DNA of 64,000 bases. It comes from an uncultured Bacteroidales bacterium. Its GTDB lineage: Bacteria > Bacteroidota > Bacteroidia > Bacteroidales > UBA10428. The position numbers and the translations under genes are program-made. The notes beneath the pieces are model-generated. The model searched no databases. It was not told the origin of the DNA and was given only the letters and a program-made list of their open reading frames with translations. This document shows, in pieces, positions 1,436-59,946 of this stretch (positions are counted from its first letter, which is position 1; every line of letters begins with the position of its first letter). The DNA is taken from contig CAWBNI010000025.1 in assembly GCA_963790105.1 (NCBI GenBank), positions 76,638 to 140,637 of the forward strand. The letters are read 5' to 3'.

Positions 1436-1544
1436 AGTCGTCAGTCGTGCAGTCGTGCAGTCTGAAAAGCCTAGATACCTAGATGCCTAGATGCCTAGAT
1501 GCCTAATATGCCTAATCGTAAATCGTAAATCGTAAATCGTAAAT
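1436..1544. repeat. Composite short-tandem-repeat array (three word types)
   Basis: AGTCGTGC about x3 (1437-1462). GCCTAGAT x4 plus GCCTAAT x2 (1469-1516). CGTAAAT x4 (1517-1544). The last unit runs into the minus-strand TGA stop of 1544-2062. A hairpin CTATCCC-GTCA-GGGATAG lies just upstream at 1402-1419. Confidence 0.95.
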
Positions 1545-2062
1545 CATTCTATGCTCTCAATCACCTTCCTCAATTCCCTGAAAAGGGGAAGTTTGTCATC
1601 AATAACCAGGTTTTCTGACTGTCTGAGATACCGGATGCATTCTGTTCTGTCCTGGTCGGTTGCATTAGGAAACGATTCTTCCAGAACTGTAAATGCCTCC
1701 AATGAGGTAAGATAATCGGAATAGATAAACAATTTTGCGAATACCGGGAGATATTTGCTGAAATCGAGTCCCGATTGCCAGCATGCTGCCACAAAGCCTG
1801 GCAGTTGTTCACCGAAATCCATATTTTCAAGCGAAGAAGCAATGACGGGAACGGCATCCTGCGATTTGATTTCACCCAGAAGGTTAAGTATCTCTGACCG
1901 GATGATCAGGGGAGTGTCTTTTCTTATCATCTGAAACAGCACCGGCAACATTTTAATCGAACCTGAATTCCGGATCTCATATATTGCGGGGATAGCCTGA
2001 TCCGGATCAAGTGATTCAAGTGCGCGGTTCCATTCTCTTTCAATGATGCTTTGCTTTTCCAT
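1544..2062 (-). CDS. Hypothetical protein, helical (HEAT/armadillo-like) repeats
   Basis: Intact 172-aa ORF with repeated helical segments (PVLFQMI.., ILNLLGEIKSQDAVPVIASSL). No catalytic motif. Confidence 0.45.
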   Translation of the reverse strand: MEKQSIIEREWNRALESLDPDQAIPAIYEIRNSGSIKMLPVLFQMIRKDTPLIIRSEILNLLGEIKSQDAVPVIASSLENMDFGEQLPGFVAACWQSGLDFSKYLPVFAKLFIYSDYLTSLEAFTVLEESFPNATDQDRTECIRYLRQSENLVIDDKLPLFRELRKVIESIE

Positions 2063-2105
2063 GATTAAAATTTTTCATAATAAGATACGGTCATGCACAA
2101 GTTGT

Positions 2106-3444
2106 TCATTCATGAACCGAAGTCCCGTATTCAATAAGCAGAATCCGGGAGGTCTTGTCTGTAAATCTATACCGGTCATCAATCCGGTGATTCACAACCC
2201 AAATGATATTCCCGGAGGATTCAATCACCCACACATGTTGTTTGTCGGGCAGGGGTACCTTATTGTCAATCAGAAAATCACTGATCTTTTTCGTTCCCTT
2301 CATTCCGAGCGGGTGAAAATGATCGCCGGCTCTCCATCGCCGCAAGGTAAGGGGAAAGACAAGCCGGTCGAAATCCAGAACAGCATATCTGTTTTCCGGA
2401 GGGACTGTATAACCCGGATTCACTTTTAAATTGCTAAAAATGAGATGAACAGGATATGTAACAAGAGCGGTGTCAGCATCGATTTCCATCTCGCTGTCAA
2501 TAGGAACCTCGTTTTTTGTAATTATAAGATGGGTACGGTCTCTTGTGATTAAATGGGTGCGGGTAATGAAACGCTTTCCGGGAGTGGCTTCAAACGAGGA
2601 CATAATGGACCGGACAAGAATTGGCGTACAGCCAAATTCCCTTAATAGTTCAAAAAGCAATGTTTCAACTGCCGGGTATTCGGTAAGCTTTTCAATGTCA
2701 ATAAGGAATTTGTCGGGCAATTCTATCCAAACCGATTTTTTTATTTGTGCCAATGCCAGATTGAGCAATTGTTCAGTTTGACTGAGCCGCGAAATCGTAT
2801 CCGTGGCATTTTGCATGAAGGCCGGATTGATGGCTTCAAATTCGGGAATCAGAACATGCCGGATGCGGTTACGGATATACTTCGTTTCGGCATTCGATGA
2901 GTCTTCCCGCCAGGTAAGCGAATGAGCATCAGCATATTTACGGATCTCTGCCCGTGATGCAAATAATAAGGGCCTTATTAAGAATCCATGCCTCGCCCGA
3001 ATTCCTGAGAGACCACGAATACCGCTTCCACGTGCGAAATTGATAAGAACGGTTTCCACCATATCATTGCGGTTATGACCTGTAGCTATAAAGTCATATC
3101 CGTTCTTTTCCCTGATGTCTTCAAACCATTCATATCTCAGATCCCGGGCAGCCATTTGAATGGATATCCCGTTTTTTGCTGGCATAATCCTGCGTATCAA
3201 AATGGTTAACAAAACAACTGACATTCATCCGCAGGGCCAGCTTTTCAACAAAAGCCTGGTCACCGTCCGATTCCTCACCTCGTAAATGAAAATTGCAATG
3301 CGCAAAATCGAAATCAATGCCGGCCGTATGAAAAAGTTCAGCCAGTACCACTGAATCAATGCCTCCGCTTACAGTGAGCAAAAACCGCTTTTCCGGTGAA
3401 CACCGGCAGATTAGTTTCAGGTATCTTTCAAATTCCTTTTGCAT
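2106..3444 (-). pseudogene. tilS: tRNA(Ile)-lysidine synthase TilS, one frameshift
   Basis: The N-terminal piece 3130-3444 carries the PP-loop SGGIDS. The C-terminal piece 2106-3224 continues the TilS body. The two join (..DYASK|NGISIQMAARDLRYEWF) if the T6 run at 3172-3177 (A6 on the coding strand) is one nt shorter. Confidence 0.85.
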
Positions 3445-3493
3445 AATTCAGATATTCCGGCAATAGGAAAGTTATCTAATTTTTTGGAATAAT

Positions 3494-3523
3494 AAAAAAC
3501 CTGACAGGTTGAACACTGTCAGG
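3494..3523 (-). terminator. Rho-independent terminator after the peroxiredoxin gene
   Basis: 8-bp stem CCTGACAG/CTGTCAGG (3500-3507 / 3516-3523), followed on the minus strand by a T-run (A-run 3494-3499 on plus). Confidence 0.7.
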
Positions 3524-3549
3524 TCAGATAGTAAAGGAAGAATAAGTAC

Positions 3550-9401: not shown

Positions 9402-9438
9402 GGCTAGTATGGCTGTTAGAGGCTGTTAGGCTGTAGGC
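9402..9438. repeat. GGCTGTTA-type tandem words
   Basis: GGCTAGTAT GGCTGTTAGA GGCTGTTAG GCTGTAG. The same word family occurs at 19782-19830. Confidence 0.9.
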
Positions 9439-9443
9439 CGTAA

Positions 9444-9567
9444 AATCCGCTTTAAGGATTATATGATTGGTAGAAAAGGATTTAGCGGCAGCCTATAAAT
9501 CCCGAAGGGATTAAATTTGAGTGGATCGCAATTGTTTTTTCTACCGACAGGCAATCCCCAGGGGATT
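9444..9567. other. Cluster of AATCC(C)/(G)GGATT inverted-repeat modules
   Basis: AATCC-N7-GGATT (9444-9460), GGATTT (9478-9483), AATCCC-GAA-GGGATT (9498-9512) and AATCCCC-A-GGGGATT (9553-9567). These allow alternative pairings. Confidence 0.8.
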
Positions 9568-9579: not shown

Positions 9580-9690
9580 CATTATTCATTATTCATTTTT
9601 AGTTCATTGTTCTGTTTAAAAGGATTCCTTACTCCCTACTCCTCTACTTCTCCTCGTCCCTACTGTCTCCCTCGTCCCTCGTCCCTAATC
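9580..9690. repeat. ATTATTC x2 followed by CTTACTC/CCTACTC/CTCGTCC word stutter
   Basis: CATTATTCATTATTCATTTTT (9580-9600). CCTTACTCCCTACTCCTCTACTTCTCCTCGTCCCTACTGTCTCCCTCGTCCCTCGTCCCTAATC (9627-9690). The last 30 nt encode the C-terminal RDEGRGRQ of the 9660-9920 CDS. Confidence 0.9.
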
Positions 9691-9920
9691 AGCATGGCCA
9701 GGTAATCCAAATGTTCCCTGAAAGCAGTCTTTCCTTCGGGAGTTGCCATATACTTCGTATTTGGCTTGCGACCGATGAATTGCTTCTTTACTTCAATGAG
9801 CCGGTTTTTTTCAAGAGCGGAAAGATGACTCGCCAGGTTACCATCGGTTATATCAAGCAAATCTTTCAGCGTAACAAAATCTACGGATTCATTTACCATT
9901 AATACTGACATAATACCCAA
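9660..9920 (-). CDS. Small winged-helix transcriptional regulator
   Basis: 86 aa from a TTG start. wHTH-like core: LKDLLDITDGNLASHLSALEKNRLIEVKKQFIGRKPNTKYMATPEGKTAF. The tail is supplied by the repeat array. Confidence 0.6.
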   Translation of the reverse strand: MGIMSVLMVNESVDFVTLKDLLDITDGNLASHLSALEKNRLIEVKKQFIGRKPNTKYMATPEGKTAFREHLDYLAMLIRDEGRGRQ

Positions 9921-9983
9921 CCTGATCCTGCTTTCAAATTGCTTATTTAATTTTGAAATTAATTCCTTAACCTGTTACACTAT

Positions 9984-10013
9984 TTCATTTTTCACTTTTT
10001 CACTTTTCACTTG
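9984..10013. repeat. TTTT(T)CAC x3 stutter
   Basis: TTTCATTTTTCACTTTTTCACTTTTCACTTG. It overlaps the stop and last codons (GTSEK*) of 10000-10653. Confidence 0.9.
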
Positions 10014-10653
10014 TACCTGCTTCATAGCGGAAATACATCATTAATCCATAAAATATATGCATTACGCCAAATCCGAAAGCCCAAAAAAGCAATCCATATC
10101 CGGGAAGCCACGACGCCATCAAACCCAGAATGATCTCGAAAATTCCAAGCACCCTGACTTCATGAAAAGTATATTTACTGGCATTGAGCAATGCGAGTCC
10201 ATAAAACAACAAGGTTGCCGGGGCCAGTAAAAAAACCAGGTGATGGGATAATAAAATTAAACAGAAAATGCCACCGCTTGTCAGCGGGATTAGCAGGTTT
10301 ATTACCATTCTTTGCGCAGTATTGTCCCATACTTTCAGACCCTTGTTGCGGGCTTTCCGCGTTGTGAAAAAAATACCTGAAGCCAGGGCTAGAATCAGAA
10401 TAGCCGATGCGTCCAGGATAATCAGACGCCAGGAATGGTTAAATCTTAAATAGGACATGCCATTAAAATAGCTATTCATATCGAAATAGCGCTGATCAAA
10501 ACCCAGGAAAAAAAAAGCTATTCCTGAACCAATCAGGGCAATAATTCCTGCTGCGACACCTGATAATCCACTGAGGGAAATAAAGCGGGAAGAGCGTTCC
10601 ATCATGCTCCGGATCTCGCTAAGCTGTTCAATCGGTTTCTGGGATATTTCCAT
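10000..10653 (-). CDS. Hypothetical multi-pass membrane protein
   Basis: Intact 217 aa with 5-6 hydrophobic helices. It is the first gene of an apparent trio with the wHTH regulator and creD. Confidence 0.5.
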   Translation of the reverse strand: MEISQKPIEQLSEIRSMMERSSRFISLSGLSGVAAGIIALIGSGIAFFFLGFDQRYFDMNSYFNGMSYLRFNHSWRLIILDASAILILALASGIFFTTRKARNKGLKVWDNTAQRMVINLLIPLTSGGIFCLILLSHHLVFLLAPATLLFYGLALLNASKYTFHEVRVLGIFEIILGLMASWLPGYGLLFWAFGFGVMHIFYGLMMYFRYEAGTSEK

Positions 10654-10795: not shown

Positions 10796-11218
10796 ATGAT
10801 GAAAAGCCATCCATTCAGGATCCTTCTATTTTTTCTTGTGATTTTATGCCCATCATTTGTATATGGTCAGGATAAAAAGGCCGTAAAGCATAAACTGAAA
10901 AGCATCACGGAATATGAGCAGAAGTATGAGAAGGGCGTTGCCGGAAAAGCATTAAAGGAATCCGAGATCCTGTATGACACTGATGGCAATGTTGTTGAAG
11001 AAACGGAATACAAGCTGGGAAAGATAAGCAAGCACGTGATGTACCAGTACGATGATAACAACAACAAGATCCGAGAGACCGAGCTTGACCCATCCGGCAA
11101 AAAGATAAAAGTTACGGAATTCAAATATACTGCTGATGGTTTGAAGTCGGAGAAGACCGTTTACGACGCAAACAATAAGATCATATCAAAGAAGACGTAT
11201 AAGTACGAAACTTATTAG
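10796..11218 (+). CDS. Hypothetical secreted protein with short Y/D/G-rich beta-hairpin repeats
   Basis: Intact 140 aa with a signal peptide. Repeats of the type EYKLGKISKHVMYQYDDNNNKIRETE and FKYTADGLKSEKTVYDANNKI. Confidence 0.4.
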   Translation: MMKSHPFRILLFFLVILCPSFVYGQDKKAVKHKLKSITEYEQKYEKGVAGKALKESEILYDTDGNVVEETEYKLGKISKHVMYQYDDNNNKIRETELDPSGKKIKVTEFKYTADGLKSEKTVYDANNKIISKKTYKYETY

Positions 11219-11227
11219 GCGTATAGA

Positions 11228-11267
11228 CATCTAGGCATCTAGGCATCTAGGCTGCTGGGCTGTGAGG
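11228..11267. repeat. CATCTAGG x3 plus GCTG(G/T)G words
   Basis: ATCTAGGC is the reverse complement of the GCCTAGAT word at 1469-1500. The array sits between convergent genes. Confidence 0.95.
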
Positions 11268-11292
11268 TTTCCCTGGACCACAGGATCCATTT

Positions 11293-11727
11293 TTATGGGA
11301 CCTTATTCAATGCACAGCGGTGAGATTTTTCATCATATTGAAAAACGAGCTGGTCCCCCTTAAATAGCATAAAACTTACGATTTTAAGATTTGGACTATA
11401 ACTCGAGGTGTTGTATTTGTAGAGCGTCATATCATCCTGAATTTTAACCAGCTCCATAAATACCATCTGACCTGTAGCTTTTCCATCCATATATAACGGT
11501 AATCTTTTAAACACCTTACCATTTAATGAATAGGATTTAATCTGATCAATCGGGATAATTAATTTTTTGCCATTTTCAAGTAACAGTGCGGTCTTTGTTT
11601 CCCGAAAGCTAATCTTTTTTGCTTCTATCTTTCCTTCATTTGAAATCACCCATGAGCCAGTCGGATTATCTGCAAATCCCATAAAACAATAACACATGGC
11701 CAACATAAGAGTAAATATTTTTTTCAT
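11293..11727 (-). CDS. Small secreted protein, paralog family member P1
   Basis: Start taken at MKKIFTLML (11727), preceded by GGAAGGA. Shares GSWVISNEGK..ISF..LENGKKLIIPIDQIKSYSLNGKVFKRLPLY..FMEL with P2-P4. Confidence 0.6.
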   Translation of the reverse strand: MKKIFTLMLAMCYCFMGFADNPTGSWVISNEGKIEAKKISFRETKTALLLENGKKLIIPIDQIKSYSLNGKVFKRLPLYMDGKATGQMVFMELVKIQDDMTLYKYNTSSYSPNLKIVSFMLFKGDQLVFQYDEKSHRCALNKVP

Positions 11728-15500: not shown

Positions 15501-16785
15501 AGGTAATTTTTTTAGTTGCCCCGGGATCATACTGGGTAACCTCATTAGATTCCGGTTTAATTTTGTATAATGCTTTATAATTGATTAGGATCCATAAGTT
15601 TTTCAGACTGTCTTCATAAATTTTACATATTCTAATACTATCGAGATTTTGGATGGTTAGTTTTTCATAGCTCGTAAATACCAGGCGGTTCATTTTAAAT
15701 TTGGATACTCCTGAAGAAACCTGTGCAATCCAGATTATTCCAGACTTGTCCTCAATTATATCATTTACCCTGAAGCGCAGTTCCTTATCGTTTGGATAGG
15801 TTGTGTTATAGCCTATTAATTCAAAGGAAATTTCTTTTGATTTATTGGCTTTGTTGATTAAGTAGACTTTTTTATCCACCATAACAAGAAAATTCTTATT
15901 TCCGTCAACGGACAAGATATTAATACTCTCTCCGCCTGTTAACTTTAAGGAAAAATCAAGCAACGAAACATCAGGGTCATTACCTTGAAGTGCCATTTTG
16001 ATATTGGTAAGCAGGTAAAGGCCTTTTGAATCCAAAATCCATGCAGAATTTTCATCAATCGGCAGTATTTTTCTCACAAATTGAATTTCCTGCCGCATTC
16101 CGCCGGAGGTCGTTCTATCCAGTCGTATGTAGGTATTTTGCCCCTTTTTCATTAGAAAGAGACCCTCTGCACAGCCCACCCATATATTTCCCTGCTCATC
16201 TTTGTTAAGAGAAAACACAGGATTATTAGCGCCCTGTTTTTGATATGGAGGTGGAAAAGATTCAATTTTAAAACTGTTATTTGCGCCCTGTTTAAATATC
16301 TCATCTTTTGTAATTGAGGTTTTCAGTTTTTCACTATACGATATTTTAAAAAGCGCTGCTAAATCAGCCGCCCATATATTGCCTTGATTATCTGAAAGCA
16401 TAGTTGACATCCAAAGGACTCCCTCATCGTGCTGATAGACCAGCATTGACCTTTCTTCTTCCGGATCATAAAGTCTTATTCCTGAATCTGTCAGCAACCA
16501 AAGTAAACCCAGGGTGTCCTCAACAATTTTCTGGATTTTACCAAATGAGCAATTTTCACAACCTCGGTTATCACTTATAGAAGTTACCTCATAGCCATTA
16601 TGTCTGTACAGGCCGGTCGGACCTCCCATCCAGATAAATCCTTTGGAATCCTGCATAATACAAGTAAATTCATGATCAGCAAGCCCCGGTTCGTCGGGAA
16701 GCTGCTCAAAATTTACTTTGGAATTCTGACAGAAAAGGCTGGGAACTGATGCTATAATTAAAAATATTAGCAAGACCTTTTTCAT
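12562..16785 (-). CDS. Hybrid two-component system sensor kinase/response regulator with AraC output (HTCS type)
   Basis: Intact 1407 aa. Signal peptide, periplasmic propeller-type repeats, a TM helix, the H-box FANVSHEFRTPLSLI, an HATPase domain (GGTGIGLSL), a receiver domain (LLIVDDN..DLIITDLMMPHMDG) and a C-terminal AraC HTH. Confidence 0.9.
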   Translation of the reverse strand: MKKVLLIFLIIASVPSLFCQNSKVNFEQLPDEPGLADHEFTCIMQDSKGFIWMGGPTGLYRHNGYEVTSISDNRGCENCSFGKIQKIVEDTLGLLWLLTDSGIRLYDPEEERSMLVYQHDEGVLWMSTMLSDNQGNIWAADLAALFKISYSEKLKTSITKDEIFKQGANNSFKIESFPPPYQKQGANNPVFSLNKDEQGNIWVGCAEGLFLMKKGQNTYIRLDRTTSGGMRQEIQFVRKILPIDENSAWILDSKGLYLLTNIKMALQGNDPDVSLLDFSLKLTGGESINILSVDGNKNFLVMVDKKVYLINKANKSKEISFELIGYNTTYPNDKELRFRVNDIIEDKSGIIWIAQVSSGVSKFKMNRLVFTSYEKLTIQNLDSIRICKIYEDSLKNLWILINYKALYKIKPESNEVTQYDPGATKKITCFIPASANGLLWIGSDKGILEFNLKTGEFRDPLPHTGIADNLRKVETLDLLDDGKLLYIATTIGLFAYNYENQKIYKTSFSSATMVGSLIKKKNGEIWAVGNFYGIRKIELNTKLDILDLTPVINKNKFIDAEIGVSTNYIFYEDNNGFLWIGNETGVHRLDPNTGENQSYKLFENTDFQSVMSITSDNKNNLWLGTYKKLCRLNMKTGKLKVFEEDDGVPLIYYSRNSVFKDKEGRIFFGGYGGFYSFYPDSFKTNDYVPPIIISDLRLFNKSVKANTSKNDILTRNIAYTKSINLKHNQNDLSFELAALDYNQPYKNKYAYKLEGYDKEWIFTDAKSRIATYTNLDPRTYVFRVKGSNNHDVWNEEGISLTIQIHKPWWATFLAQSMYVLIVLGFVFAYIRLRLWRLKKEKLELERQVNLRTRQIGEQKEEILSQRDMLEEQNRQISEHEELKSRFFANVSHEFRTPLSLIQSPVEELLDDPRRTEKERRKLNTVQRNVRRLINLVNQLLDISKLDGSKMKLELIEANVINHLQAITGIFISLAETKSINYVCHFQKYETKYWFDPDKLEKITGNLLSNAFKFTPQGGEIIFTAICKKSDDSLVEQFLEFSVKDTGPGIPAESLEKIFDRFYQVETSLKSESGGTGIGLSLTRDIVKLLHGDILVESTPGKGSSFTVILPLGKNHLKESEFILLKESPECIDLRPDLQSHSKEANQPEEEKSPEKKPILLIVDDNREIRMQLAENLFRQYTILQAIDGVAGLNKAIESIPDLIITDLMMPHMDGKELCERLKNDERTCHIPIIMLTAKVTLEEKINGFLVGADDYIPKPFHMTELKARISNLIEQRRKLRERFRQEVTLQPSDISITSMDEKFLNKAMEVIEKLMDDENFDLNKLREEMNMTRSTLFRKIHALTGQCPTEFIRTIRLKRAASLLKQHFGNVTQVSLEVGFNNLSYFNRSFKKLFGVSPVEYAKTNGS

Positions 16786-16939
16786 AGCAGATGGGTTTGG
16801 CCAAAGAGCTCGTAGAAATTATAAGGTAAGTTACAAAAGTCCTGATTCAAAGTCAAGTAACAGATTAATTAACTAAATATACATTATTTGAGATGGGATT
16901 CTCTAATCCCCGGAGCCCAAAATCTTGACATAATGATTC

Positions 16940-16967
16940 AAAAAAAAATCCTGCTGTTCAGGCAGGA
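16940..16967 (-). terminator. Rho-independent terminator after P3
   Basis: Stem TCCTGC/GCAGGA with a 7-nt loop, followed on the minus strand by T9 (A-run 16940-16948). Confidence 0.7.
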
Positions 16968-16991
16968 CTTTTAGAAGTTTCGGATGCTTCA

Positions 16992-17453
16992 TTATTCATA
17001 GTTCAGTTGAAGGCCAAAATACTTAAAGACATTTTCAATGGTTTTATCTGTTAGTGCCAAATGAAGCTTGTCGCCATCATAGATAGCGAAGTTGGCAACC
17101 GTATCATGAGGTTTAACTGATTCAAAATTGAAGGTTTCATACCGGTAAAGACTCAACTCACCCTTCTTTTGAAGCAGCTCCATGAAAGCCATATCACCCG
17201 TTGGTTTACCGTACTTGTACAACGGCATTTTATTAAATATTTTTCCCTCTACGGAATAAGAATTCAGCTTTTCAATAGGTAACTTCATTACCTTACCATT
17301 TTCCAGCACTGCCCGGACATTGGATATACCAAAGCTGATACTTTTTATGTTCATTTTACCAGACGTTGTTGATATCCAGGAACTGGTGGGTTCAGCTGCA
17401 ATTCCCGCGAGGCAATAACCGGCAGCTACTAAAAGAACAAACAATTTTTTCAT
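16992..17453 (-). CDS. Small secreted protein, paralog family member P3
   Basis: Intact 153 aa with a signal peptide. GGAGGAA lies 6 nt upstream of the ATG (17460-17466 on plus). Confidence 0.6.
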   Translation of the reverse strand: MKKLFVLLVAAGYCLAGIAAEPTSSWISTTSGKMNIKSISFGISNVRAVLENGKVMKLPIEKLNSYSVEGKIFNKMPLYKYGKPTGDMAFMELLQKKGELSLYRYETFNFESVKPHDTVANFAIYDGDKLHLALTDKTIENVFKYFGLQLNYE

Positions 17454-17527
17454 TTTTAATTCCTCCGATAGTTTAGTTTAAAATTTTTACTTTTTTAAGC
17501 CCGAAAGCTGAAGTAAAAATAAGTAAG

Positions 17528-17573
17528 GAGGAGGGGTGAAATCAAACACAATTGACTCATTGGTTTGAAGAAT
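17528..17573. promoter_or_regulatory. 46-nt element conserved upstream of P3 and P4
   Basis: GAGGAGGGGTGAAATCAAACACAATTGACTCATTGGTTTGAAGAAT is identical at 18327-18372. A degenerate copy lies upstream of P2 (about 12465-12530). Confidence 0.5.
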
Positions 17574-17586
17574 TGGATCAAAAAGT

Positions 17587-17640
17587 GATTTAACGATTTT
17601 TGGATTTACGATTTACGATTCTTCGTGGGTTGCACCCACG
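17587..17640. repeat. GATTTAC-type words followed by a hairpin
   Basis: GATTTAACGATTTTTGGATTTACGATTTACGATTCTTCG (ATTTACG is the reverse complement of CGTAAAT). Then a 7-bp stem CGTGGGT-TGC-ACCCACG (17624-17640). Confidence 0.9.
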
Positions 17641-17739
17641 AGTATTGAAATCAGGCACTTTGACGAGTTGATTTCCAAACCTGGTAGCCCAAAAGTTTAA
17701 CGTGTTTGCCCAGTTCTGGTCAGAATTAAATATTATCCC

Positions 17740-17767
17740 AAAAAAAAATCCTGCTTTTGGGCAGGAT
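17740..17767 (-). terminator. Rho-independent terminator after P4
   Basis: Stem ATCCTGC/GCAGGAT, followed on the minus strand by T9 (A-run 17740-17748). Confidence 0.7.
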
Positions 17768-17788
17768 CTTTCTTTAGCCTTCTAATAA

Positions 17789-18254
17789 TTACTCATATAC
17801 AATCTTCACATCAAAATACTTGCTGATATTTGCCATCGATTTTTCGTCCACTGCCAAATAAAAGTTGTCTCCCTTATAAACCAATAAGTTATAAGTTTCT
17901 TTCAGTGGGGTAGTAAATGGCTCGTAAATATAATCAGTACACCTATAAAGGCTTAATTCGCCTTGAGTCTTTATAAGTTCCATAAATGCCATCTGTTCAG
18001 TTGGCTTACCATTTTTATACAAGGTGAGTTTGTTAAACACCTTGCCATTGACTGAATATGAACTAAGCTGGTCAATGGGTAACTTAAGTTTCTTGCCATT
18101 TTCAAGTAAAATCCTGGCATTGGAAAGACCAAAGCTGATCCTTTTCATTTCCATTTTGCCTGATTTGGACATTATCCAGGAACTGGCAGGTTCAGCTGGC
18201 AATCCCCGCGACACAATATCCAGCGACAATCAAAAGAACAAATAACTTTCTCAT
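17789..18254 (-). pseudogene. Small secreted protein, paralog family member P4, frameshift in the signal peptide
   Basis: ATG at 18254 gives MRKLFVLLIVAGYCVAGIAS*. One extra A near 18190 separates this from AEPASSWIMSKSGK.. (ORF 17789-18229). GGAGGAA lies 5 nt upstream of the ATG. Confidence 0.65.
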
Positions 18255-18326
18255 TGTTTTTCCTCCTATAGTTAAGTTCAGAATTTTACTTATTTAAGGT
18301 TGAAAACTGAAGTAAAGATAAGGTAA

Positions 18327-18372
18327 GAGGAGGGGTGAAATCAAACACAATTGACTCATTGGTTTGAAGAAT
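18327..18372. promoter_or_regulatory. Second copy of the 46-nt conserved upstream element
   Basis: Identical to 17528-17573. Confidence 0.5.
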
Positions 18373-18385
18373 AGGACCAAACAAT

Positions 18386-18557
18386 GATTTACGATTTCTG
18401 GATTTACGATTTACGATTCTTCGCGATTACCGATTACCGACCTCACCCACACGCTGTCGCTGAAGCTTTAGCGTAAGCGTCCGAAGCCTCAGCGAAGGCG
18501 GGATACCGAACACCGAACACCGAATACCGGTTACCGGTTACCGATTATCGATTACCG
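18386..18557. repeat. Long composite array (ATTTACG, CGATTAC, CCGAACA, CGGTTAC words)
   Basis: ATTTACG at 18387, 18402 and 18409. CGATTAC x2 (18424-18437). A quasi-repeat AGCGTAAGCGT/CAGCGAAGGCG. CCGAACA x2, CGGTTAC x2 and CGATTAT CGATTAC (18505-18557). The 3' part encodes the VIDNR* tail of 18538-19738. Confidence 0.9.
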
Positions 18558-19738
18558 TCTGACTGATTACGCCCGTTTTCTTATCCTTGAGAATAACCTT
18601 CACAGAGCCATCCGGCATGGTTTCCTTCTTTACCAGGTAATGGCCGGCATCATAATCACGGGTGGCATGGATGGGTTCTGACTTGTCCTTGCCCCGCCAG
18701 ATATCGAGTTTCACCGGCTCCCATTTTTTTGATTTTGATGACCTGTAACAGGCATCCATGATCTCATTCACTACATACCCGTCATAGAATGTCTCATTTG
18801 GCTGGGTCTTGTTTTCATAGGCCCGGAACATATCGGTAAACATGTCTGTATATCCCAATTCCACGACCTCATCGCCCACGGGAAACAGCCATCCTTTTTC
18901 GGTCTCGGCTTTTTCAGCCACATAACCTCCTTTGCTGGAAGCTGTGAATATTTCAAATCCTGTTCTGAGGAAATTATTCACCCAGATAGTGCCTTCCGTT
19001 CCCATGGCTTCATCCCTCAGATCCATTCCGCCGCGGAAAGACCAGCTGACTTCAAACTGGCCGATGGCCCCATTTTCGTATTTCACCCATCCCAGGGCAT
19101 TGTCTTCGGCTTCAATGGGCTTTACCAGGGTATCAGCCCAGCACATGACCTCAACGGGGCGGATATCTTTACCAATATAATTCCTTGATATTTCAATGCA
19201 ATGACAACCCATATCAAGCAGCACGCCTCCACCGGAGATTTCTTTTGTCCAGAACCAGTCGCTGTGCGGACCGGGATGTGTTTCCCTTGACCTGGCCCAG
19301 ATCACATCACCTATTGCCCCTGACCTTACTGATTTCAGTGCTTTTAGTGTTTTTGGAGTATAAACCAGATCTTCCATGTATCCATGCATCACACCTGCTT
19401 TTTCTGCGAGTTCAAGCATCTCCATTGCTTCTGCAGCATTGCATCCAAGCGGCTTGGTGCAGAAAACTGCTTTCTTTGCTTTTGCAGCCAGCCTCACTGC
19501 CTCCAGGTGCAGGTTATTTGGCAGCGCCACTACTACAATGTCAACTTCAGGATCATTTACTGCCTTTCTCCATTGAAGTGGTCCATTCAGGTATGCCGTG
19601 TTTCTGGGCAAAGGCCTTTCCCCGGCCTTCATCCCGTGAATAAATGACCTGCACTGCATCACGGCTTCGCTGACCATGAATGGAAAAAGTATAAAAATCA
19701 CCGATAAATCCGGCACCGAGCATGGCTACTTTTGGCAT
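18538..19738 (-). pseudogene. Gfo/Idh/MocA-family NAD(P)-dependent oxidoreductase, one frameshift
   Basis: The N-terminal piece 19553-19738 has the Rossmann motif [11 protein letters not shown]. The remainder lies in 18538-19716. Frames 1>0 (one extra nt). Confidence 0.8.
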
Positions 19739-20002
19739 AGTTGTTAGTTGTTAGTTGTTAGTTGTTAGTTGTTAGGTATCAGGCTGTTAGGCTGTAGGCT
19801 GTTAGGCTGCTAGGCTGTTAGCGTACTAGGCTTCTGCAGGCTTGCACGTTGACTGCAGAACTGCAGACTGCACATCTGCATAACTATCAAATTTGCACAT
19901 TAGCACATTTGCACATTAGCAAATCTTGCACATTGTAAATTGCACATTGTATTGTCTTTCACTTTTAGTTATTAGTTTTTATCATTTATCTTTTATCTTT
20001 AT
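19739..20002. repeat. Largest composite array, filling a divergent spacer
   Basis: GTTGTTA x5 (19740-19774). GGCTGTTA/GGCTGTA/GGCTGCTA x5-6 (19782-19830). CTGCAG-containing units. Six GCACAT cores (19870-19947). TTAGTT and TTTATC stutters to about 20002. Confidence 0.95.
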
Positions 20003-20028
20003 GTCCCTAACTAAAATACATTATTCCC

Positions 20029-21357
20029 ATGAAAAGAATAACATGTCTGGGCATATTTTTGACCCTTTCTTTTTACCTGGTTGCACAAGTGTATCAGCCA
20101 ACCTGGGAATCTATCGATAAAAGACCTGTTCCCCAGTGGTTTACCAATGCAAAATTTGGCATTTTTATTCACTGGGGTGTGTATTCTGTTCCCTCATGGG
20201 CTCCCGCCAATGCACCCATTGGCGTTTATGCCAAATATGCCGAGTGGTACTGGTATAAAACTACTGTTAATTCCGGTGAAGAATACAAATATTTCAGGGC
20301 ATTTGATTCCACCATGTATGGTGCAAAGCATAAATACGCTGATTTTGCCGGACAGTTTAAGGCGGAATTGTTTGATCCCACGGCAATGGGCAGATGTTTT
20401 TGTAAGGTCGGGTGCAAAGTATGTGGTTCTCACCTCAAAACATCATGAAGGGTTCTGCCTCTGGCCCAGTGAGCAAAGCTGGAACTGGAATGCCGTGGAT
20501 ATCGGCCCGCACCGTGATCTGGCCGGCGATCTTACCAGGGCAGTAAAAGCCAGGGGACTGCATATGGGCTTTTATTATTCCCTGTATGAATGGTTTAATC
20601 CACTTTATAAAAACAATCTCGAAGAAATATGTGGATGATCACATGATCCCGCAAATGAAGGACCTTGTTACCAGGTATACCAGCCTGACATACTATGGAC
20701 TGATGGGGAATGGGAACATCCCAGTGAGGATTGGAAAAGCACTGACATTCCTGTCATGGCTGTACAATGAATCGCCCGTAAAAGACCAGGTTGTGGTTAA
20801 TGACCGGTGGGGCAAGGAAACAAGATCGGTACACGGTGGAATCTATACAACTGAATATGATCTGGTAAACGATAAAAAGGGAATCGGCAGTGCAGCTGCC
20901 CATCCATGGGAAGAATGCCGGGGTATCGGAACTTCTTTTGGTTACAACCGGGTTGAAGACCTGAATAATTATATGAGTTCAAAGGCACTGGTGGATTTGC
21001 TTATTGCGAAAGTGTCATCCGGCGGAAATCTTTTGCTTGATATCGGTCCTACAGCTGACGGACTGATTCCGGTTATCATGCAGCAACGGCTTGATTGATA
21101 TAGGCGACTGGCTGAAGGTAAACGGCGAAGCCATTTATGATTCCCGTGTATGGCAAAAGCAACCGTCCGCTGCAATCCCGGATGTGTATTTCACCTGCAA
21201 GGGCAGCGATCTGTATGTTATCTGCACAAAATGGCCTCAGAAATCACTTGTTATTCCGGGGATTCATTCAGCCGGAAAAGTATCCCTGTTGGGATCAGAC
21301 GTAAAGGTCAGTGCACAGGCAAATGGAAAACTCACAATTCGATCCACCTTCAATTAA
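20029..21357 (+). pseudogene. GH29 alpha-L-fucosidase, at least 3 frameshifts
   Basis: Pieces starting at 20029, 20081, 20586 and 21091 (frames 1>2>0>1). Motifs [47 protein letters not shown] and GGNLLLDIGPTADG. Confidence 0.85.
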
Positions 21358-27745: not shown

Positions 27746-27795
27746 GGTATTCGGTATTCAGGTAATCGGTAATCGGTAATCGGTATTCAGTAATG
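27746..27795. repeat. GGTATTC / GGTAATC heptamer array
   Basis: GGTATTC x2, GGTAATC x3, GGTATTC, AGTAATG. The array starts 1 nt after the transporter stop codon. GTAATCG is the reverse complement of CGATTAC. Confidence 0.95.
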
Positions 27796-30930: not shown

Positions 30931-31043
30931 AATTGATAGTTGATAGTTGATCGTGAGACTGGGAGTGAATGACTGCAAGCCTTGTTCATAACTCCAACTA
31001 CAACTACCAACAACTAACAACTAACAACTAACAACAATCAACT
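30931..31043. repeat. Composite array ending in the (TAACAAC)n leader
   Basis: TTGATAG x2-3 (30933-30953). AACTCCA/ACTACAA/CTACCAA words. TAACAAC x3 (31015-31035), then AATCAACT immediately before the ATG at 31044. Confidence 0.95.
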
Positions 31044-35893: not shown

Positions 35894-35915
35894 GGCATTG
35901 CCTTGGCTCTACGAT
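35881..35915. other. 35-nt near-perfect palindrome
   Basis: ATCGTAGAGCCAAGGCA-T-TGCCTTGGCTCTACGAT, with 17-bp arms. Confidence 0.9.
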
Positions 35916-35939
35916 ATCCTATTCTATATCAAAATCAAT

Positions 35940-35967
35940 CGTAAATCGTAAATCGTAAATCGTAAAT
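35940..35967. repeat. CGTAAAT x4
   Basis: Four exact units. As at 1517-1544, the array runs directly into a minus-strand TGA stop (35967-35969). Confidence 0.95.
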
Positions 35968-36513
35968 CAATTTACTGCCATTTTTTCGAGCACCGAACTG
36001 GCCATCAGGTTATTTTTCCGGAGAATTTCCTTGTTCATTTCAAATTTCATAACACCGTTTACCGGGATAAAATTAATCATTGATCCTTTATCAATCAGAC
36101 CTTCGGTTTGAGAAACGATGAGCGTATGGCTTCCGCTGGTCTTTTGTACCAATGCATTTATTTTGTTGCTCTGCCAGTCAGCCACAAATACAATTTGCTG
36201 GTATCCTGAAACTTCATTCACCGAACTAAAATACCTTACAACGATAGGCTGCAAACCAACCCTCATGTTTTGAGTAAGCTTTGTCATTTCAGTATAAAGT
36301 TCCTTATCACCAACGATCGTAGATGACAAAGTCACCCGATTTGTTTTCTTCCGGCCAGTTAATGTTTCTCGAAAAATTGTAAAGACAATTTGAAAGATAC
36401 TTCGTCATTGAAACAATTTTCACATCCTGGGATTTACCTGACTCTGTAATTAAAAACAGCAGTATAAATGCAACTGTCAATCTGAGGCCGGTCTTTAAGA
36501 TAGATCTGTTCAT
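35967..36513 (-). pseudogene. YfiR-like (DUF4154) periplasmic protein, one frameshift
   Basis: Signal-peptide piece 36307-36513 plus body 35967-36335 (frames 0>2). The family call is from overall similarity only. Confidence 0.5.
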
Positions 36514-48207: not shown

Positions 48208-48256
48208 CCCGGGGCGTTGCCCCGGGTTAATGATGTGACGCTTTCAGCGTCATCCT
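48208..48256. other. Two adjacent GC-rich hairpins
   Basis: CCCGGGGC-GTT-GCCCCGGG (48208-48226) and GACGCT-TTC-AGCGTC with flanking GAT/ATC (about 48233-48256). Confidence 0.8.
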
Positions 48257-48310
48257 CTTCATCGGTCCTCATCTCTTACTCCTTACTCCCTAGTCCCTAG
48301 TCCCTCTTCC
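48254..48310. repeat. TCC(C/T)TA(G/C) heptamer stutter
   Basis: CTCTTAC TCCTTAC TCCCTAG TCCCTAG TCCCTCT (48273-48307) with degenerate units before. It contains the stop and the last codons (RKRD*) of cydB. Confidence 0.9.
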
Positions 48311-55576: not shown

Positions 55577-57454
55577 ATCGTAAGCATAATAGTGAGTAAA
55601 ATCACCAGTCCAGCCGTCAATACAAGGGCATACAACCTGAGTTTGCCGTTTTGCGACCTGCTGAGCAAACCGTTAAAGAACATGACGGACTGCGCTATAT
55701 AGGTAAAGATCTTATCGAGCACATCGTTTTTGTTAATAGCGGATATCCATTCAACAGGCCTTACGATCAACCGGTCATACAGCCAGTCGAATCCCCATCC
55801 CCTATAAAAAAAGTCATTCAGTCCGTGCTGATTGAACAGGGCAGGGAAGGACTTCTTTTTATAATAATAGACATATGCCAGCCAGACACCGCCCAGCGCT
55901 ATAATCGCAGAAATAACCTGGAACAGCCATTCCGGTAAGTGCCTCGCCGGTCAGATGTGACTTCCGGAAACAGGGGGTTCAACAAGGTTGAAAAAAGATG
56001 TACTGGTCCCAGGTTTTCAGGCAATTCTATAAAACCGCCGGCCAGCGAAAGAAAGGCAAGAACTAGCCAGCGGAATTCCCATCAGAATGCCGGGTTTATG
56101 TTTGGGTTCAATTTTAAGCTCTCCGAAAAAGGTAAGAAATATCATCCGGAAAGTATACAGCGAGGTAATCAGGGCACCCGCAATACCGGCAAGCCATAGC
56201 CATTTGCTTCCCATGCCGGACGACCACGAAAACCAGAGGATCTGGTCCTTGCTGTAAAAGCCTGCCGTGATGAGAGGCAGTGCAGACAGTGATGCACCGC
56301 CAATGAGGAAGGTGATGAAAACCAGGGGCAGTTTTTTTCGCAAACCTCCCATTTTGTGCATATCGTGTTCCTCATGCAGCAACAATATCACACTTCCGGC
56401 GCCAAGAAAGAGCAGAGCCTTAAAGAACGCATGGATCATGAAATGGAAAATGGCAGCTGACCAGGCGCCCACTCCCAGGGCAAGGAACATATAACCGATC
56501 TGGCTTATCGTGGAATAGGCAAGTACACGTTTCAGATCGTGCTGGTTCAAAGCACTGAAGCCGGCAATAAACAGGGTTGCTGCGCCGATGATGGCTACCA
56601 GGGTCTGAACTGCAGGTGCCAGGCTGAACAGAACATGGGTGCGGGCAATCAGGTATACTCCGGCTGTTACCATGGTTGCTGCATGGATGAGTGCACTGAC
56701 CGGCGAGGGACCGGCCATGGCATCAGGCAGCCAGGTCTGCAGGGGCAGCTGGGCGGATTTTCCCACCGCTCCTCCCAGCAGCAGCAAGGCAGAGATCACC
56801 GCAAGCGGCGAGCCGGAATGCCATTGAACAGGCGCCTGCTGCATGAGGGTATCAATATCCAGGGTTCCAAAACTTACAAAAACAGGAATAATCCGATGAT
56901 CATGAAGGTATCACCGATACGGGTAACGATAAATGCTTTGCGGGCAGCATTGTTGTTTTCAGGATCCTTATACCAGAAGCCGATCAGCAGGTAACTGCAT
57001 AATCCGACTCCTTCCCATCCAAGGTAAAGAAGCAAGCAGATTTCCGGCCAGCACCAGGACAAGCATGGAGGCAACAAACAGGTTCATATAGGCGAAAAAC
57101 CGCGAAAAGCCCTCATCGTCCTGCATGAATTCAACCGAATACAGATGGATCAGGGCACCCACAAAGGTGATGACAAAACAAAATACAAGGGAAAGGGCAT
57201 CCAGTTTAAGGGTTATGCCGGCAGTAAATCCACCTGCATTCATCCAGGTATACAGGGTGGATGTAACTGCTGTTCCCCCGGGATGTGAAGAGAGAAAATT
57301 AATCCCCGATAACCATGGTAAGCATGGCAGACAGGCAGACAGAGCCAACGGCAATGACGGCAACAGCCCGGCGTGACAGTATCCTGCCAAAGAAAACGAT
57401 AATCAGAAAACTGAGAACAGGCAAACCGGGTATTAGTCCAATATAGGCATCCAT
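55573..57454 (-). pseudogene. nuoL: NADH:quinone oxidoreductase subunit L, about 6 frame changes
   Basis: Start MDAYIGLIPGLPVLSFLII at 57454. Pieces ending at 57390, 57077, 56844 and 55770, with further shifts in 55770-56017. Confidence 0.75.
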
Positions 57455-57480
57455 CTGCAATTGTTTATATTACTTTTTTA

Positions 57481-57786: not shown

Positions 57787-57789
57787 ATC

Positions 57790-58348
57790 TTAAGCCTGTT
57801 TGTTTAGTTAACGTCTTTTCTTCCCCGGGTTGTTTTACCAGGAACCGGTGGATGACTTTCTTTTTCTGTTTACCCAGGTGATAGGCCCCGACTATACCGG
57901 CCATCAGAACACTGCAGCTATTTCAACAGCAATAAGATAGGTTGTGAAAAGGGAAACGCCAACCTGTTTGGGTGTAATTACAACCGCTGACTGTATTCAC
58001 CGAATGCAATTGCCTCATGGCATACACCAGAATGGCCAGCAGTGCACAGTGACAGGAATAACAGGCAAAATCCACATCCGGGGTTTCAGCCATTTGTTTT
58101 CGATTTCTTCTTCCAGGCCAATGTTGAGGATCATCACAACAAATATGAACAATACCATGATGGCACCGGCATAGACAATCACTTCAAGGGCTGCAATAAA
58201 AGGTGCACCCGAAATATAAAATATGATTGAAATGGAAAGAAGCGACAGGATCAGGTACAGCAGGGCATGAATAGCATTGCGGTTGGTGATCGACATCAGC
58301 GATGAGATCAGGGCGATGGATGGCTGCAATAATAAAAATCGTATTCAT
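57790..58348 (-). pseudogene. nuoJ: NADH:quinone oxidoreductase subunit J, 2-3 frame changes (3' end approximate)
   Basis: ATG at 58348 (MNTIFIIAAI) shifts into ALISSLMSITNRNAIHALLYL..VYAGAIMVLFIFVVMIL. The tail is in 57674-57904. Confidence 0.65.
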
Positions 58349-58369
58349 GTATTCACTGAATATTATTTT

Positions 58370-58885
58370 CTAATGAATCAGACTTTTCAAATCAACCGGG
58401 GGTTCTTCATTTTCACCCGTTCCGGTATCTTTCACTCCCATATCTACTCCTGCCACACGGTAAAAATTATATCCCGGATATTTTCCCTGTCCGCTGATCA
58501 GCAGGTGCTCTTTTTCATAGACCAGGTTCTGACGGTCATATTCTGCCATTTCAAAATCGGGGATCAGCTGGATGGCATAGGTAGGGCATGCCTCTTCACA
58601 AAGGCCGCAATAAATACATCGCGAAAAATTGATCCTGAAAAACTCCGGATACCGCCTTCCGTCCGTATCCTCGGTCGACTGCAAGGCGATGCAGTCCACC
58701 GGGCAGGCAGCTGCACATAGATTACAGGCAACACATCTTTCTTTCCCGTCAGGGTCGCGGGTCAGCACAATCCTTCCCCTGTAACGCGGCGGCAAATAGG
58801 GTTTCTTTTCAGGATATCCCCTGGTTTCGCGTTTATGAAATGCATGCAGGAATGTGATCCATATGCTTCTTAATATACTTATCAT
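58370..58885 (-). CDS. nuoI: NADH:quinone oxidoreductase subunit I (2x[4Fe-4S])
   Basis: Intact 171 aa. [12 protein letters not shown] and [12 protein letters not shown]. Confidence 0.9.
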
Positions 58886-59830
58886 ACCGTTCTATAAATT
58901 ATAACTGCACCAGTAATTAATATGTTGAGCAAAACAAGGGGTAACAGAACTTTCCAGCCCACTTCCATCAGCTGGTCATATCTCGGCCGGGGAAGTGAAG
59001 CCCGGATAAGAATGAACATGCAGATAAAAAACGCTGTTTTGAAAAAGAACCAGAATGCGGGCGGTAAAAAAGCGGGACCCAGCCAGCCCCCAAAGAAAAG
59101 AGTGGCAATGAGGGCAGAAATAAGGGTAACACCCATATATTCACCGACGAAGAACATGCCGAATTTCATTCCCGAATATTCGGAATGATATCCTGCCACC
59201 AGTTCGCCTTCTGCTTCCGGAATATCGAAGGGTGTACGGTGTGTTTCTGCCAGACCGGCGATAAAGAATATCACAAAACCCGACAAACTGGGGAAGTATA
59301 AACCAGCCTCCCCGCTGTGCTTCAACAATTTCGCGAAGGCTGAAGCTGTCGGCCATCATAACGACACCCACAAGCGACAGACCCATAAATACTTCATAGG
59401 TAAGCATCTGGGCTGAACCACGGATTGATCCCAAAAGGGAATATTTATTGTTTGAAGCCCATCCGCCGAGGACAATGCTGTATACGCCCAGGGAAGAATT
59501 GCCCAGGAAGAAAAGCAGGCCGATGTTGGAATCCAGTACCAGGAATTTATCGGTAAAAGGAATAACGGCAAAGGTGAGCAGGATACTGCCTACCAGGATG
59601 CCGGGCGCCAGAACAAACACTCTTTTATCGGCAAAGGGCGGGATCCAGTCTTCTTTGAAAAAGATCTTTATCACATCGGCAATTACCTGCAGCAGACCGA
59701 ACGGACCCACACGGTTCGGACCATACCTGTCCTGGAAAAGCGCCAGCAGCCTTCTTTCAACATATATCAGGCCTGCCGCTATGGTCAGCACAATCAGTAA
59801 TACACCTGCAATAATAAATACATACTTCAT
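58882..59830 (-). pseudogene. nuoH: NADH:quinone oxidoreductase subunit H, one frameshift
   Basis: 59141-59830 (VERRLLALFQDRYGPNRVGPFGLLQ) plus 58882-59328 ([27 protein letters not shown]). Frames 1>0. Confidence 0.85.
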
Positions 59831-59870
59831 ACTGTATCCATTTCAAAAGTTATTTTCTATCCTAACATTT

Positions 59871-59946
59871 CGAAATCGTAAATCGTACAATCGCGATTAC
59901 CGTATCCTACCGATGTACCGATTACCGATTACCGATCACCGATCAC
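59871..59946. repeat. Word-stutter array inside the nuo operon (nuoG-nuoH spacer)
   Basis: CGAAAT CGTAAAT CGTACAAT CGCGATTAC .. CGATGTAC CGATTAC CGATTAC CGATCAC CGATCAC. The last units encode GVIGDR* of nuoG. Confidence 0.95.

Follow-up and report, generated by a model that had tools for sequence, protein, structure and literature searches.

What are the short tandem repeats that fill the spacers between genes in an uncultured Bacteroidales bacterium, and how did they arise? We approached this question through a 64,000-nucleotide stretch of contig CAWBNI010000025.1 (the window, below), in which an initial annotation had pointed to 13 spacers with tandem runs of 7–8 nt words. Arrays were located with Tandem Repeats Finder (TRF), and the sequences were then read directly. 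Period-7/8 arrays were found by TRF at all 13 loci, and two loci beyond those listed came to light, one at 1379-1398 (AGTTTTGC x2.5) and a weak one at 57326-57342. We can thus confirm the arrays as a real and robust feature of the spacers of this bacterium. The explanation that we consider fairly probable is that they are made by slippage, are largely neutral, grow into unconstrained spacer DNA and have been spread by block copying.

The arrays are highly specific in period. Exact runs, defined as lag-p identity over at least two copies plus 3 nt, number 20 in the window, 16 of period 7 and four of period 8, and there are none of periods 5, 6 or 9–15. By comparison, twenty dinucleotide-type shuffles of the window yielded a mean of 0.0 runs for periods 7 and 8. 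They are also excluded from genes: 19 of the 20 runs (15 of the 16 with period 7) fall in non-coding DNA, which makes up 12,366 bases or 19% of the window when the coding boundary is drawn from crude gene calls (binomial p = 4e-13). The lone ‘coding’ run, at 9668-9686, encodes the C-terminal 9 residues of an HTH_34 protein in which the Pfam domain stops at residue 74 of 83, which bears out the earlier remark that coding runs are confined to extreme 3' ends. TRF arrays of period 7/8, together with the double periods 14–16, span 942 bp in all; 818 bp of this is non-coding and represents 6.6% of the non-coding DNA.

Could such arrays have been produced by error-prone long-read sequencing or assembly? 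Many window genes are frameshifted, which hints at indel errors. The alpha-L-fucosidase gene (20029-21098) and a GFO/IDH/MocA gene (31044-32096) are each broken into three open reading frames (ORFs), nuoH (58882-59830) is split as well, the ATG (19716-19738) of another GFO/IDH/MocA oxidoreductase gene is out of frame with its own ORF, and a small paralogue (18172-18252) has one extra C relative to an independent contig, L081, and a related locus, L001. These split genes suggest long-read indel errors rather than true pseudogenes, and since the frameshifts are many and one is missing from L081, a long-read assembly prone to errors is the probable source of the window. The arrays, however, are reproduced elsewhere. 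L081, a 2-kb contig from run ERR10755939 that was retrieved by an exact-protein look-up, is 99.0% identical to window 16433-18479 and carries three of its arrays at equal copy number, all differences within arrays being point substitutions. Arrays of the same kind occur in relatives assembled with MEGAHIT/SPAdes (L005, L009 and L012) and in JGI contigs such as L082-L085 and L094, and orthologous arrays are common to five species. Because the independent contig, the short-read metagenome-assembled genomes (MAGs) and five species all carry them, the arrays are not artefacts, and we give an artefactual origin practically no credence. Further exact-protein look-ups for strains gave no match; a metagenome scan gave no contig of the same species (best identity 85%) and returned close strain pairs of other species.

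The family extends well beyond this bacterium. The oxidoreductase encoded on the minus strand at 18538-19738, between two array-rich spacers, has its closest relatives in uncultured Bacteroidales MAGs (best identity 93%); these are environmental MAGs with contigs of up to 2.7 Mb. In a comparative set of 161 related loci totalling 1.86 Mb, we counted 116 exact runs with period 7, 54 with period 8, nine with period 9 and none with period 10, and the period-7 and period-8 counts lie ~65-fold and ~120-fold, respectively, above a rough, hand-calculated estimate for random sequence. At least two period-7/8 runs are present in 34 of the 161 loci. The arrays form a lineage-wide family. When the oxidoreductase is placed in a neighbour-joining tree, the array bearers L005, L003, L001, L002 and the window fall together in one subclade; in the rest of the Bacteroidales the distribution is patchy. 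Outgroup phyla are without arrays except for L057 and L074. The latter is Flavilitoribacter nigricans DSM 23189 (NZ_PDUD01000004.1), a cultured Saprospiraceae isolate with five exact period-7/8 runs in 21 kb.

How the arrays came to occupy a spacer can be followed between the divergently transcribed fucosidase and oxidoreductase genes. L006, L008 and L011 have this spacer in a 73-75 nt form without arrays; arrays fill a spacer of 226-290 nt in the window, L001, L002 and L005 and a longer one still in L003. Both edges of the compact spacer can be recognised at the edges of the expanded versions. The 73-75 nt form is the ancestral one, swollen by arrays. Likely seeds are present in the compact spacers, namely an A-rich GATAAAA stretch and an AACAAC before the ATG (for example in L011). 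In the expanded spacers the order of sequence themes is constant over the five species, running AAAGATA, AATGTGC, GCAGTTTT/GCAGTCGT (GCAGTYNT), CAGCCT and TAACAAC-ATG, with the qualification that not every species has all five themes and that spelling and copy number vary. The constant order indicates that these arrays were inherited from arrays that the common ancestor already had and have since undergone concerted evolution; they qualify neither as conserved elements nor as short-lived noise. The spacer downstream of the oxidoreductase shows the same behaviour: it carries (CGGTAAY)n and (AATCGTA)n tracts in the window and in L002, and no more than a short hairpin in L001.

Comparison of strains, using pairs of loci 95-99.9% identical, shows what changes in an array. 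Between strains 96-97% identical, the long indels include some of 14 and 22 nt in (TCCAAAC/TCTAAAC)n, 21 nt in (ACGAATT)n and 21 nt in (GTGATAA)n; these are whole-unit changes, as slippage predicts. No copy-number change was seen at 99% identity or above, in a small sample that includes the three arrays in L081 at 99.0%; contingency loci are thus much more mutable than these arrays. Within arrays, adjacent words are one or two substitutions apart, as in CGGTAAT/CGGTAAC/CGGTATT/CGGTGTT, and 7- and 8-nt units interconvert inside a single array (GGGCTGTTA-type/GGCTGTA). Such word chains and unit interconversion fit slippage in which units mutate and are then amplified. The initial annotation had held that many different words per locus are unlike slippage; the near-identity of neighbouring words, the whole-unit indels and the presence of seeds in array-free relatives speak against that view.

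The arrays are also positioned non-randomly with respect to genes. Across 103 array-bearing spacers, an array lies within 3 nt of, or overlaps, the stop codon at 43 of 113 gene 3'-end flanks (median distance 8 nt), and an array lies within 3 nt at 6 of 93 gene 5'-end flanks (median 59 nt). Often the stop codon and the C-terminal tail are provided by an array, as at 9660, 10000, 11216 and 18538 in the window. Hairpins are close by: of the eight strongest in non-coding DNA, four are no more than 25 nt away from an array (permutation P = 0.003). The typical layout is thus a stop codon, an array, a hairpin, ~60 nt of array-free promoter and leader, and the next gene. Convergent, divergent and tandem spacers carry arrays alike, and hence there is no single functional niche. 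Arrays that touch a stop codon contain a stop triplet on the sense strand in 33 of 52 cases and on the antisense strand in 11 of 52, an excess that is partly true by construction.

Placement of this kind raises the possibility that the arrays are cis-elements acting on RNA or DNA and kept by selection, serving as repeated binding sites for a single-strand-binding regulator (S1, Csp or CsrA-like), as 3' untranslated region (3'-UTR) spacers that separate stop codon and terminator, or as unstructured translation leaders. Besides the proximity to stop codons and hairpins and the sense-strand stop triplets, the constant theme order and the reuse of words between spacers would agree with such a role, as would the (TAACAAC)n tracts at two start codons, kept in five species, and a Nostoc preprint reporting that deletion of heptamer repeats alters the behaviour of the recO promoter (10.1101/2022.06.06.494920). 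The words themselves argue otherwise. The sampled loci contain 112 distinct words with no common motif, among which we saw only weak purine/pyrimidine clustering (z -2.65) and, overall, neither avoidance of start codons nor enrichment of stops. Both orientations relative to transcription are used without significant strand bias (36/63 and 38/63 positive skews). Structured RNA was considered and rejected: 18 array tracts folded on both strands had a mean z of 0.07 against shuffles, negative values arising only from palindromic words (ACCGGT, CTGCAG) or inverted neighbouring arrays, and the window has no Rfam matches. Rho-utilisation sites could likewise be ruled out, since the sense strand is G-rich rather than C-rich. 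Selection for a cis-acting role is further opposed by the equal use of all three spacer types, by the orthologous 73-75 nt spacers that work array-free in close relatives, and by L001, in which the oxidoreductase gene is not followed by the arrays found there in the window and L002. We therefore regard selected cis-elements as an unlikely account of the family as a whole, and most arrays are probably without sequence-specific function.

One sub-class stands apart. (TAACAAC)n abuts the ATG of two GFO/IDH/MocA genes (19738 and 31044), in sense orientation in both. All five species retain it before the orthologous ATG; L005 and L001 have 2.3-2.6 copies per tract, and the versions of L002 and L003 are degenerate. 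The resulting leader is A/C-rich, with A at -3 and -6. Bacteroidota do not depend on Shine-Dalgarno pairing for initiation. (TAACAAC)n alone among the arrays looks as though it might have a function, as an unstructured A/C-rich leader that could favour translation.

We turn now to the words that are shared between loci. The shared words and orientations reported earlier were all located where they had been placed: CGTAAAT/ATTTACG, GCCTAGAT/ATCTAGGC, GTTGTTA/TAACAAC, CGATTAC/GTAATCG and GGCTGTTA. In the window, 15 pairs of identical canonical words join different spacers, against 0.29 expected from letter-permuted words and 0.31 from random non-coding k-mers (maximum 4 in 2000 simulations); one of the 15 reflects a local tandem gene duplication (17431-17625 vs 18232-18423). 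Within the 64 kb sampled, AAATCGT occurs at five loci and AATCGGT at three. Oligonucleotide frequency was dismissed as the cause, since coding DNA shows no over-representation of single copies of these words. Copying, on the other hand, is evident in blocks larger than a word. Two spacers of L003 that lie 4 kb apart share a composite block of ~200 nt, in which 95 nt are identical and partly non-periodic and are followed by arrays of unequal length. The window itself contains an inverted copy whose non-periodic ends match (1468-1508 vs 11253-11213), a copy that includes an irregular 7-nt unit (9420-9438 = 19781-19799) and a third pair at 1514-1546 and 35937-35969. Word reuse thus stems, at least in part, from the copying of whole composite blocks between spacers, for which recombination or gene conversion between arrays would be the simplest route. 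In L021, at 19200-20950, arrays take part in a ~440-nt higher-order tandem repeat of 3-4 copies, satellite-like in appearance, whose unit comprises (AAGACCGC)n and (CAGGTGT/CAGGGGT)n arrays and ~170 nt of unique sequence.

Block copies could instead reflect a dedicated means of dispersal, either a non-autonomous cassette that moves with REP-like hairpins in the manner of RAYT or IS200-IS605 elements, or a lineage-specific polymerase or template-switching activity that writes 7-8 nt units. The duplication of blocks with non-periodic sequence, the inverted copy just described and the higher-order repeat of L021 would all be accommodated, and so would the co-location of arrays with hairpins, the double-hairpin element that is dispersed among arrays in several species and a patchy phylogeny of the sort expected for a factor gained and lost. 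Against this, 40 window ORFs scanned against Pfam include no transposase, reverse transcriptase, mobile-element or polymerase gene, the block ends that were inspected show neither terminal inverted repeats nor target-site duplications, most arrays appear to have grown locally from resident sequence, and the block copies are more simply accounted for if homologous arrays undergo gene conversion. Dedicated dispersal strikes us as less likely again than cis-elements. The same low standing goes to a bolder idea, in which the arrays come from a lineage-specific, gained-and-lost activity that writes or copies units and moves word cassettes, possibly with REP-like hairpins, or else constitute a genome-wide 3'-UTR/leader code read by a protein. 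If it were true, array-rich and array-poor sister MAGs would reveal the responsible gene and provide the first mechanistic handle on bacterial heptamer repeats, the STRR repeats of cyanobacteria included.

In the slippage explanation that we favour, strand slippage during replication or repair, strongly preferring a 7-8 nt register, would add and remove whole units, and point mutations in a unit would themselves be amplified into chains of related words. As neither 7 nor 8 is a multiple of three, arrays would be purged from reading frames, which is our proposed cause of the coding exclusion. They would be kept out of roughly the last 60 nt before starts, the site of promoter and leader, and their expansion would halt at constrained elements, leaving them flush with stop codons, often supplying the stop, and with terminator-like hairpins. 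Arrays would then last long at orthologous spacers under concerted evolution, and the homology between them would let whole blocks spread by copying, probably via recombination or gene conversion, into further spacers and so create the shared vocabulary. The data show the period specificity, the exclusion from coding DNA, the whole-unit indels, the growth of spacers, the constant theme order, the block copies and the placement; we infer slippage as the generator, selection as the cause of placement, recombination as the copying route and near-neutrality.

Several observations weigh against the slippage explanation. Slippage leaves the 7-8 nt register unexplained, and periods 6 and 9, which would be tolerable even in genes, are rare. 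The patchiness among close relatives is unexplained as well: judged by the marker protein, L006 and L001 are equally close, yet L006 is nearly array-free. Theme order has been kept across 7-20% protein divergence, which may owe more to selection than to inertia, and selection may also lie behind the (TAACAAC)n-ATG junction, kept in five species and one paralogue. The excess of sense-strand stop triplets is compatible with a function at gene ends too. Finally, words are reused between spacers far above chance, and this needs an extra copying process beyond slippage.

How do these arrays relate to repeat systems described before? The initial annotation had likened them to the STRR heptamers of cyanobacteria, which Mazel et al. 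reportedly described in 1990 with the units CCCCAGT (STRR1), TTGGTCA (STRR2) and CAACAGT (STRR3). In kind the likeness is good: both are tandem intergenic heptamers, lineage-specific, with words reused at many loci of one genome. As a matter of family membership it does not stand, the canonical words being absent and the host being a member of Bacteroidales. Unlike STRRs, the arrays here use 112 word types, octamers are common and several words are concatenated per spacer in a non-cyanobacterial host. Tandem doublets of CCCCAGT, TTGGTCA and CAACAGT number zero in the window and the 161 loci, TAACTGA doublets likewise number zero, and GGGAATC is absent; the arrays therefore belong to none of these families.

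Phase-variation simple sequence repeats mostly have units of 1-5 nt, are hypervariable within populations, and are located in the ORFs, or between the promoter elements, of genes for surface structures or restriction-modification. The arrays share with them short tandem units that change copy number by slippage, but differ in having 7-8 nt units behind the stop codons of housekeeping and glycan-utilisation genes, in affecting only C-terminal tails and in being stable at 99% identity. Phase variation was ruled out on position, gene functions and copy-number stability. They are unlike REP, BIME and MITE elements as well, since they have no excess structure and no visible terminal inverted repeats or target-site duplications, and it is the neighbouring hairpins, not the arrays, that look REP-like. 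CRISPR loci, with repeats of 23-50 nt and unique spacers, differ from these head-to-tail units of 7-8 nt without spacers.

The statistical literature offers a broader class. According to MacGregor's summary of Mrazek, Guo & Shah (2007), heptamers are the most abundant long simple sequence repeat in most genomes, repeats whose period is not a multiple of three avoid genes, and polymerase slippage with a contact of ~7 nt was proposed as the origin; the top ten genomes rich in 5-11-nt repeats, in the same summary, come from Burkholderia, Cyanobacteria, Actinobacteria and Xanthomonas, with no Bacteroidetes (PMC4679880). Our arrays resemble this LSSR(5-11) class in having units of 5-11 nt beyond chance, a dominance of heptamers, a mostly non-coding location and a patchy distribution, and the class is a statistical one rather than a mechanism.

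Closer parallels exist, one of them in the same phylum. The initial annotation had been aware of no equivalent description for Bacteroidota, but MacGregor (2015) reported TAACTGA direct repeats in Beggiatoaceae, Cyanobacteria and five Bacteroidetes (Flexibacter litoralis, Paludibacter, Gramella forsetii, Aequorivita sublithincola and Elizabethkingia), and proposed them as sites for a single-strand-binding regulator (PMC4679880). In G. forsetii and A. sublithincola the same spacers hold further heptamer repeats, and the spacers of relatives are shorter and repeat-free (PMC4679880). Our arrays are similarly intergenic, with several heptamers side by side, with shorter repeat-free spacers in relatives and, in the case of (TAACAAC)n, with a position just upstream of starts. 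They differ in mostly abutting stops, the only start-abutting examples in the window being the two (TAACAAC)n tracts, and in a far more diverse vocabulary. Rehm (2015) found Xanthomonas and Nostoc heptamers ~28 nt from the upstream ORF and ~160 nt from the downstream ORF, with repeats between the same genes in related species that vary extensively in length and sequence (PMC4692102). Like those GGGNATC/GGGGAYT repeats, the arrays are intergenic, lie nearer the end of the upstream ORF, have heterogeneous units and are retained at the same genes with length variation. A subset of words here (GGGACGA, GGGACTA and GGGACAA) shares their G-quadruplex capability, but one G-rich consensus dominates there, while words with G3 are a small minority here. 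Such arrays go unmentioned in a 2026 preprint in which a genomic language model was used to describe intergenic features. In kind, the arrays are the same as STRR, LSSR(5-11) and the heptamers of Xanthomonas, Nostoc, Beggiatoaceae and some Bacteroidetes. New here are the lineage, an uncultured Bacteroidales clade, a rich vocabulary in which octamers share dominance with heptamers, the demonstration that themes keep their order, the copying of blocks and the abutment on stops and hairpins.

The clade provides an unusually good comparative system for asking why bacteria make repeats in a 7-nt register and how words spread through a genome, with array-rich and near array-free close relatives, shared gene order, alignable ancestral and expanded spacers and many long-read MAGs, and the cultured F. 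nigricans DSM 23189, which has arrays, is an experimentally tractable organism. The arrays give rise to C-terminal tails and stop codons, reshape existing ones and lengthen 3' and 5' untranslated regions, and they will mislead gene callers, repeat maskers and the discovery of intergenic motifs in these genomes. If they are neutral, they represent a clear bacterial case of mutation-driven growth of non-coding DNA.

The remaining features of the window are given in map order. Its genes encode TilS, a peroxiredoxin, a hybrid two-component regulator, cytochrome bd, G6PD, Nuo subunits, a protein sorted by the type IX secretion system and glycosidases; the sorted protein and the hybrid regulator are typical of Bacteroidota. 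The additional array at 1379-1398, supported by TRF and by direct reading, sits between the stop (1373) of a plus-strand gene and a GC-rich hairpin, CTATCCC-GTCA-GGGATAG (1402-1419), in a convergent spacer with arrays on either side, the nearest 4 nt away. This hairpin is likely a bidirectional terminator. It belongs to a recurring type, ATCCC-GNNN-GGGAT, found again at 9493-9510 and in L001 and L003. The word GCAGTTTT of this array is also used in L002, L003 and L005. That (GCAGTTTT)n might mimic the -7/-33 TTTG promoter boxes of Bacteroidetes seems unlikely, as the word lies here in a convergent spacer and its array in L003 is inverted relative to L002 and L005. Beyond the hairpin follow TRF arrays of AGTCGTGC (x3.5, 1436-1462) and GCCTAGAT (x5.6, 1469-1514), the latter with its inverted block copy, non-periodic ends included, at 11213-11253 (90% over 41 nt). 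An AATCGTA array (x4.6, 1514-1545) then enters the TGA stop of the minus-strand gene 1544-2062 and is identical at 33 of 33 positions to 35937-35969.

Between 9 and 12 kb, the GGCTGTTA/AGGCTGT array (9411-9442) contains a 19-mer, AGGCTGTTAGGCTGTAGGC, that includes the irregular 7-nt unit and is identical to 19781-19799. TRF also marks CATTATT x2.6 at 9580-9597. On the minus strand, the HTH_34 gene (9660-9911) takes its last 9 codons and its TAG stop from the composite TCCCTAC/TCCCTCG array at 9626-9686. CACTTTT(T) x4.6 (9978-10012) overlaps the stop and last codons of the minus-strand gene 10000-10653, and the first unit of the TAGGCATC x4.6 array (11216-11252) opens with the TAG stop of gene 10796-11218.

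The region from 17 to 19 kb includes the segment covered by the independent contig. GATTTAC x2.6 (17603-17620), with equal copy number in L081, lies 3 nt from the hairpin TCGTGGGT-TGC-ACCCACGA (17623-17641), whose dispersed family is also represented in L001, L002 (x3) and L003. The wider double-hairpin element, REP-like in look, consists of GNCCCC-GAA-GGGGNC, TGATTTCAATAAC and CGTGGGT-N3-4-ACCCACG, and its sites, often among arrays, are window 17622-17665, L001 ~9905-9955, L002 ~9895-9935 and 11330-11390, and L003 ~11195-11250. An intrinsic terminator at 17748-17775 (ATCCTGC-TTTTGG-GCAGGAT followed by T9) comes after gene 17789-18252, and a near-identical T/A-run and stem start recur at 16939-16955; some terminators here are therefore of the classic type with a hairpin and a U-tract. 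GATTTAC x4.6 followed by CGATTAC x2.4 (18386-18440) has orthologous arrays in L002 and none in L001, and it differs from L081 by two substitutions, one per word, with copy number unchanged. The TACCGAT-type array at 18504-18557 (x7.7), which reads CGGTAAT/CGGTAAC/CGGTATT/CGGTGTT on the minus strand, holds the TAA stop of the oxidoreductase gene.

The expanded spacer upstream of that gene begins with (AACAACT) x5.4 (19738-19775, minus strand), which abuts the ATG (19738-19736) as an A/C-rich leader. It continues with TGTTAGGC x6.8 of the CAGCCT theme (19770-19832, by TRF), ACTGCAGA x4.4 of the CTGCAG theme (19851-19885), common to L002, L003 and L005, ATTTGCAC x5.4 of the AATGTGC theme (19888-19948), common to L001 and L002, and TTTATC(T) x3.8 of the AAAGATA theme (19977-20002), common to L001, L002 and L003. 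Further along, GGTAATC/GGTATTC x6.9 (27746-27794) begins immediately behind the TGA stop of gene 26744-27745. TTGATAG x2.7 (30933-30951, by TRF) precedes the plus-strand (AACAACT) x5.1 tract at 31000-31044, which abuts the ATG (31044) of the second GFO/IDH/MocA gene in the same sense as at 19738; it matches 19730-19773 at 93% over 44 nt, start codon included. A hairpin with a 16-bp stem (35881-35915) stands 22 nt from the array at 35937-35968, where AATCGTA x4.6 enters the TGA stop of the minus-strand gene 35967-36335. CTTACTC x2.1 and TCCCTAG x2.7 (48275-48305) lie beside hairpins at 48208-48226 and 48236-48252. Words of GGGACNA form at 9626-9690 and 48287-48305 (minus strand) and at 9750-9780 of L005 provide at least four G3 tracts with 4-nt loops, and would be capable of forming G-quadruplexes, as the GGGNATC repeats of Xanthomonas are.

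At 59873-59947, AAATCGT x2.9 is followed by CGATTAC x7.1 in inverted orientation, with the palindrome AATCGCGATT at the junction. These head-to-head, near-complementary arrays make an imperfect long inverted repeat (fold z -2.1). Taken with the inverted GCAGTTTT array of L003, this arrangement suggests strand-switching at palindromic cores such as CTGCAG.

The tandem paralogous genes around 17-18 kb, which encode 153-aa proteins without assigned function, are preceded by a conserved leader of ~140 nt, found on the minus strand of the window at 17454-17592 and 18253-18392, in L001 at 11212-11352 and in L002 at 11468-11610. No covariation support and no Rfam match were obtained for this leader. 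It contains a perfect inverted repeat, TCAAACCAAT-N6-ATTGTGTTTGA, operator-like in form, and a CCUCC...GGAGG pairing beside a GGAGG located 8-10 nt before the ATG, which is unusual for Bacteroidota.

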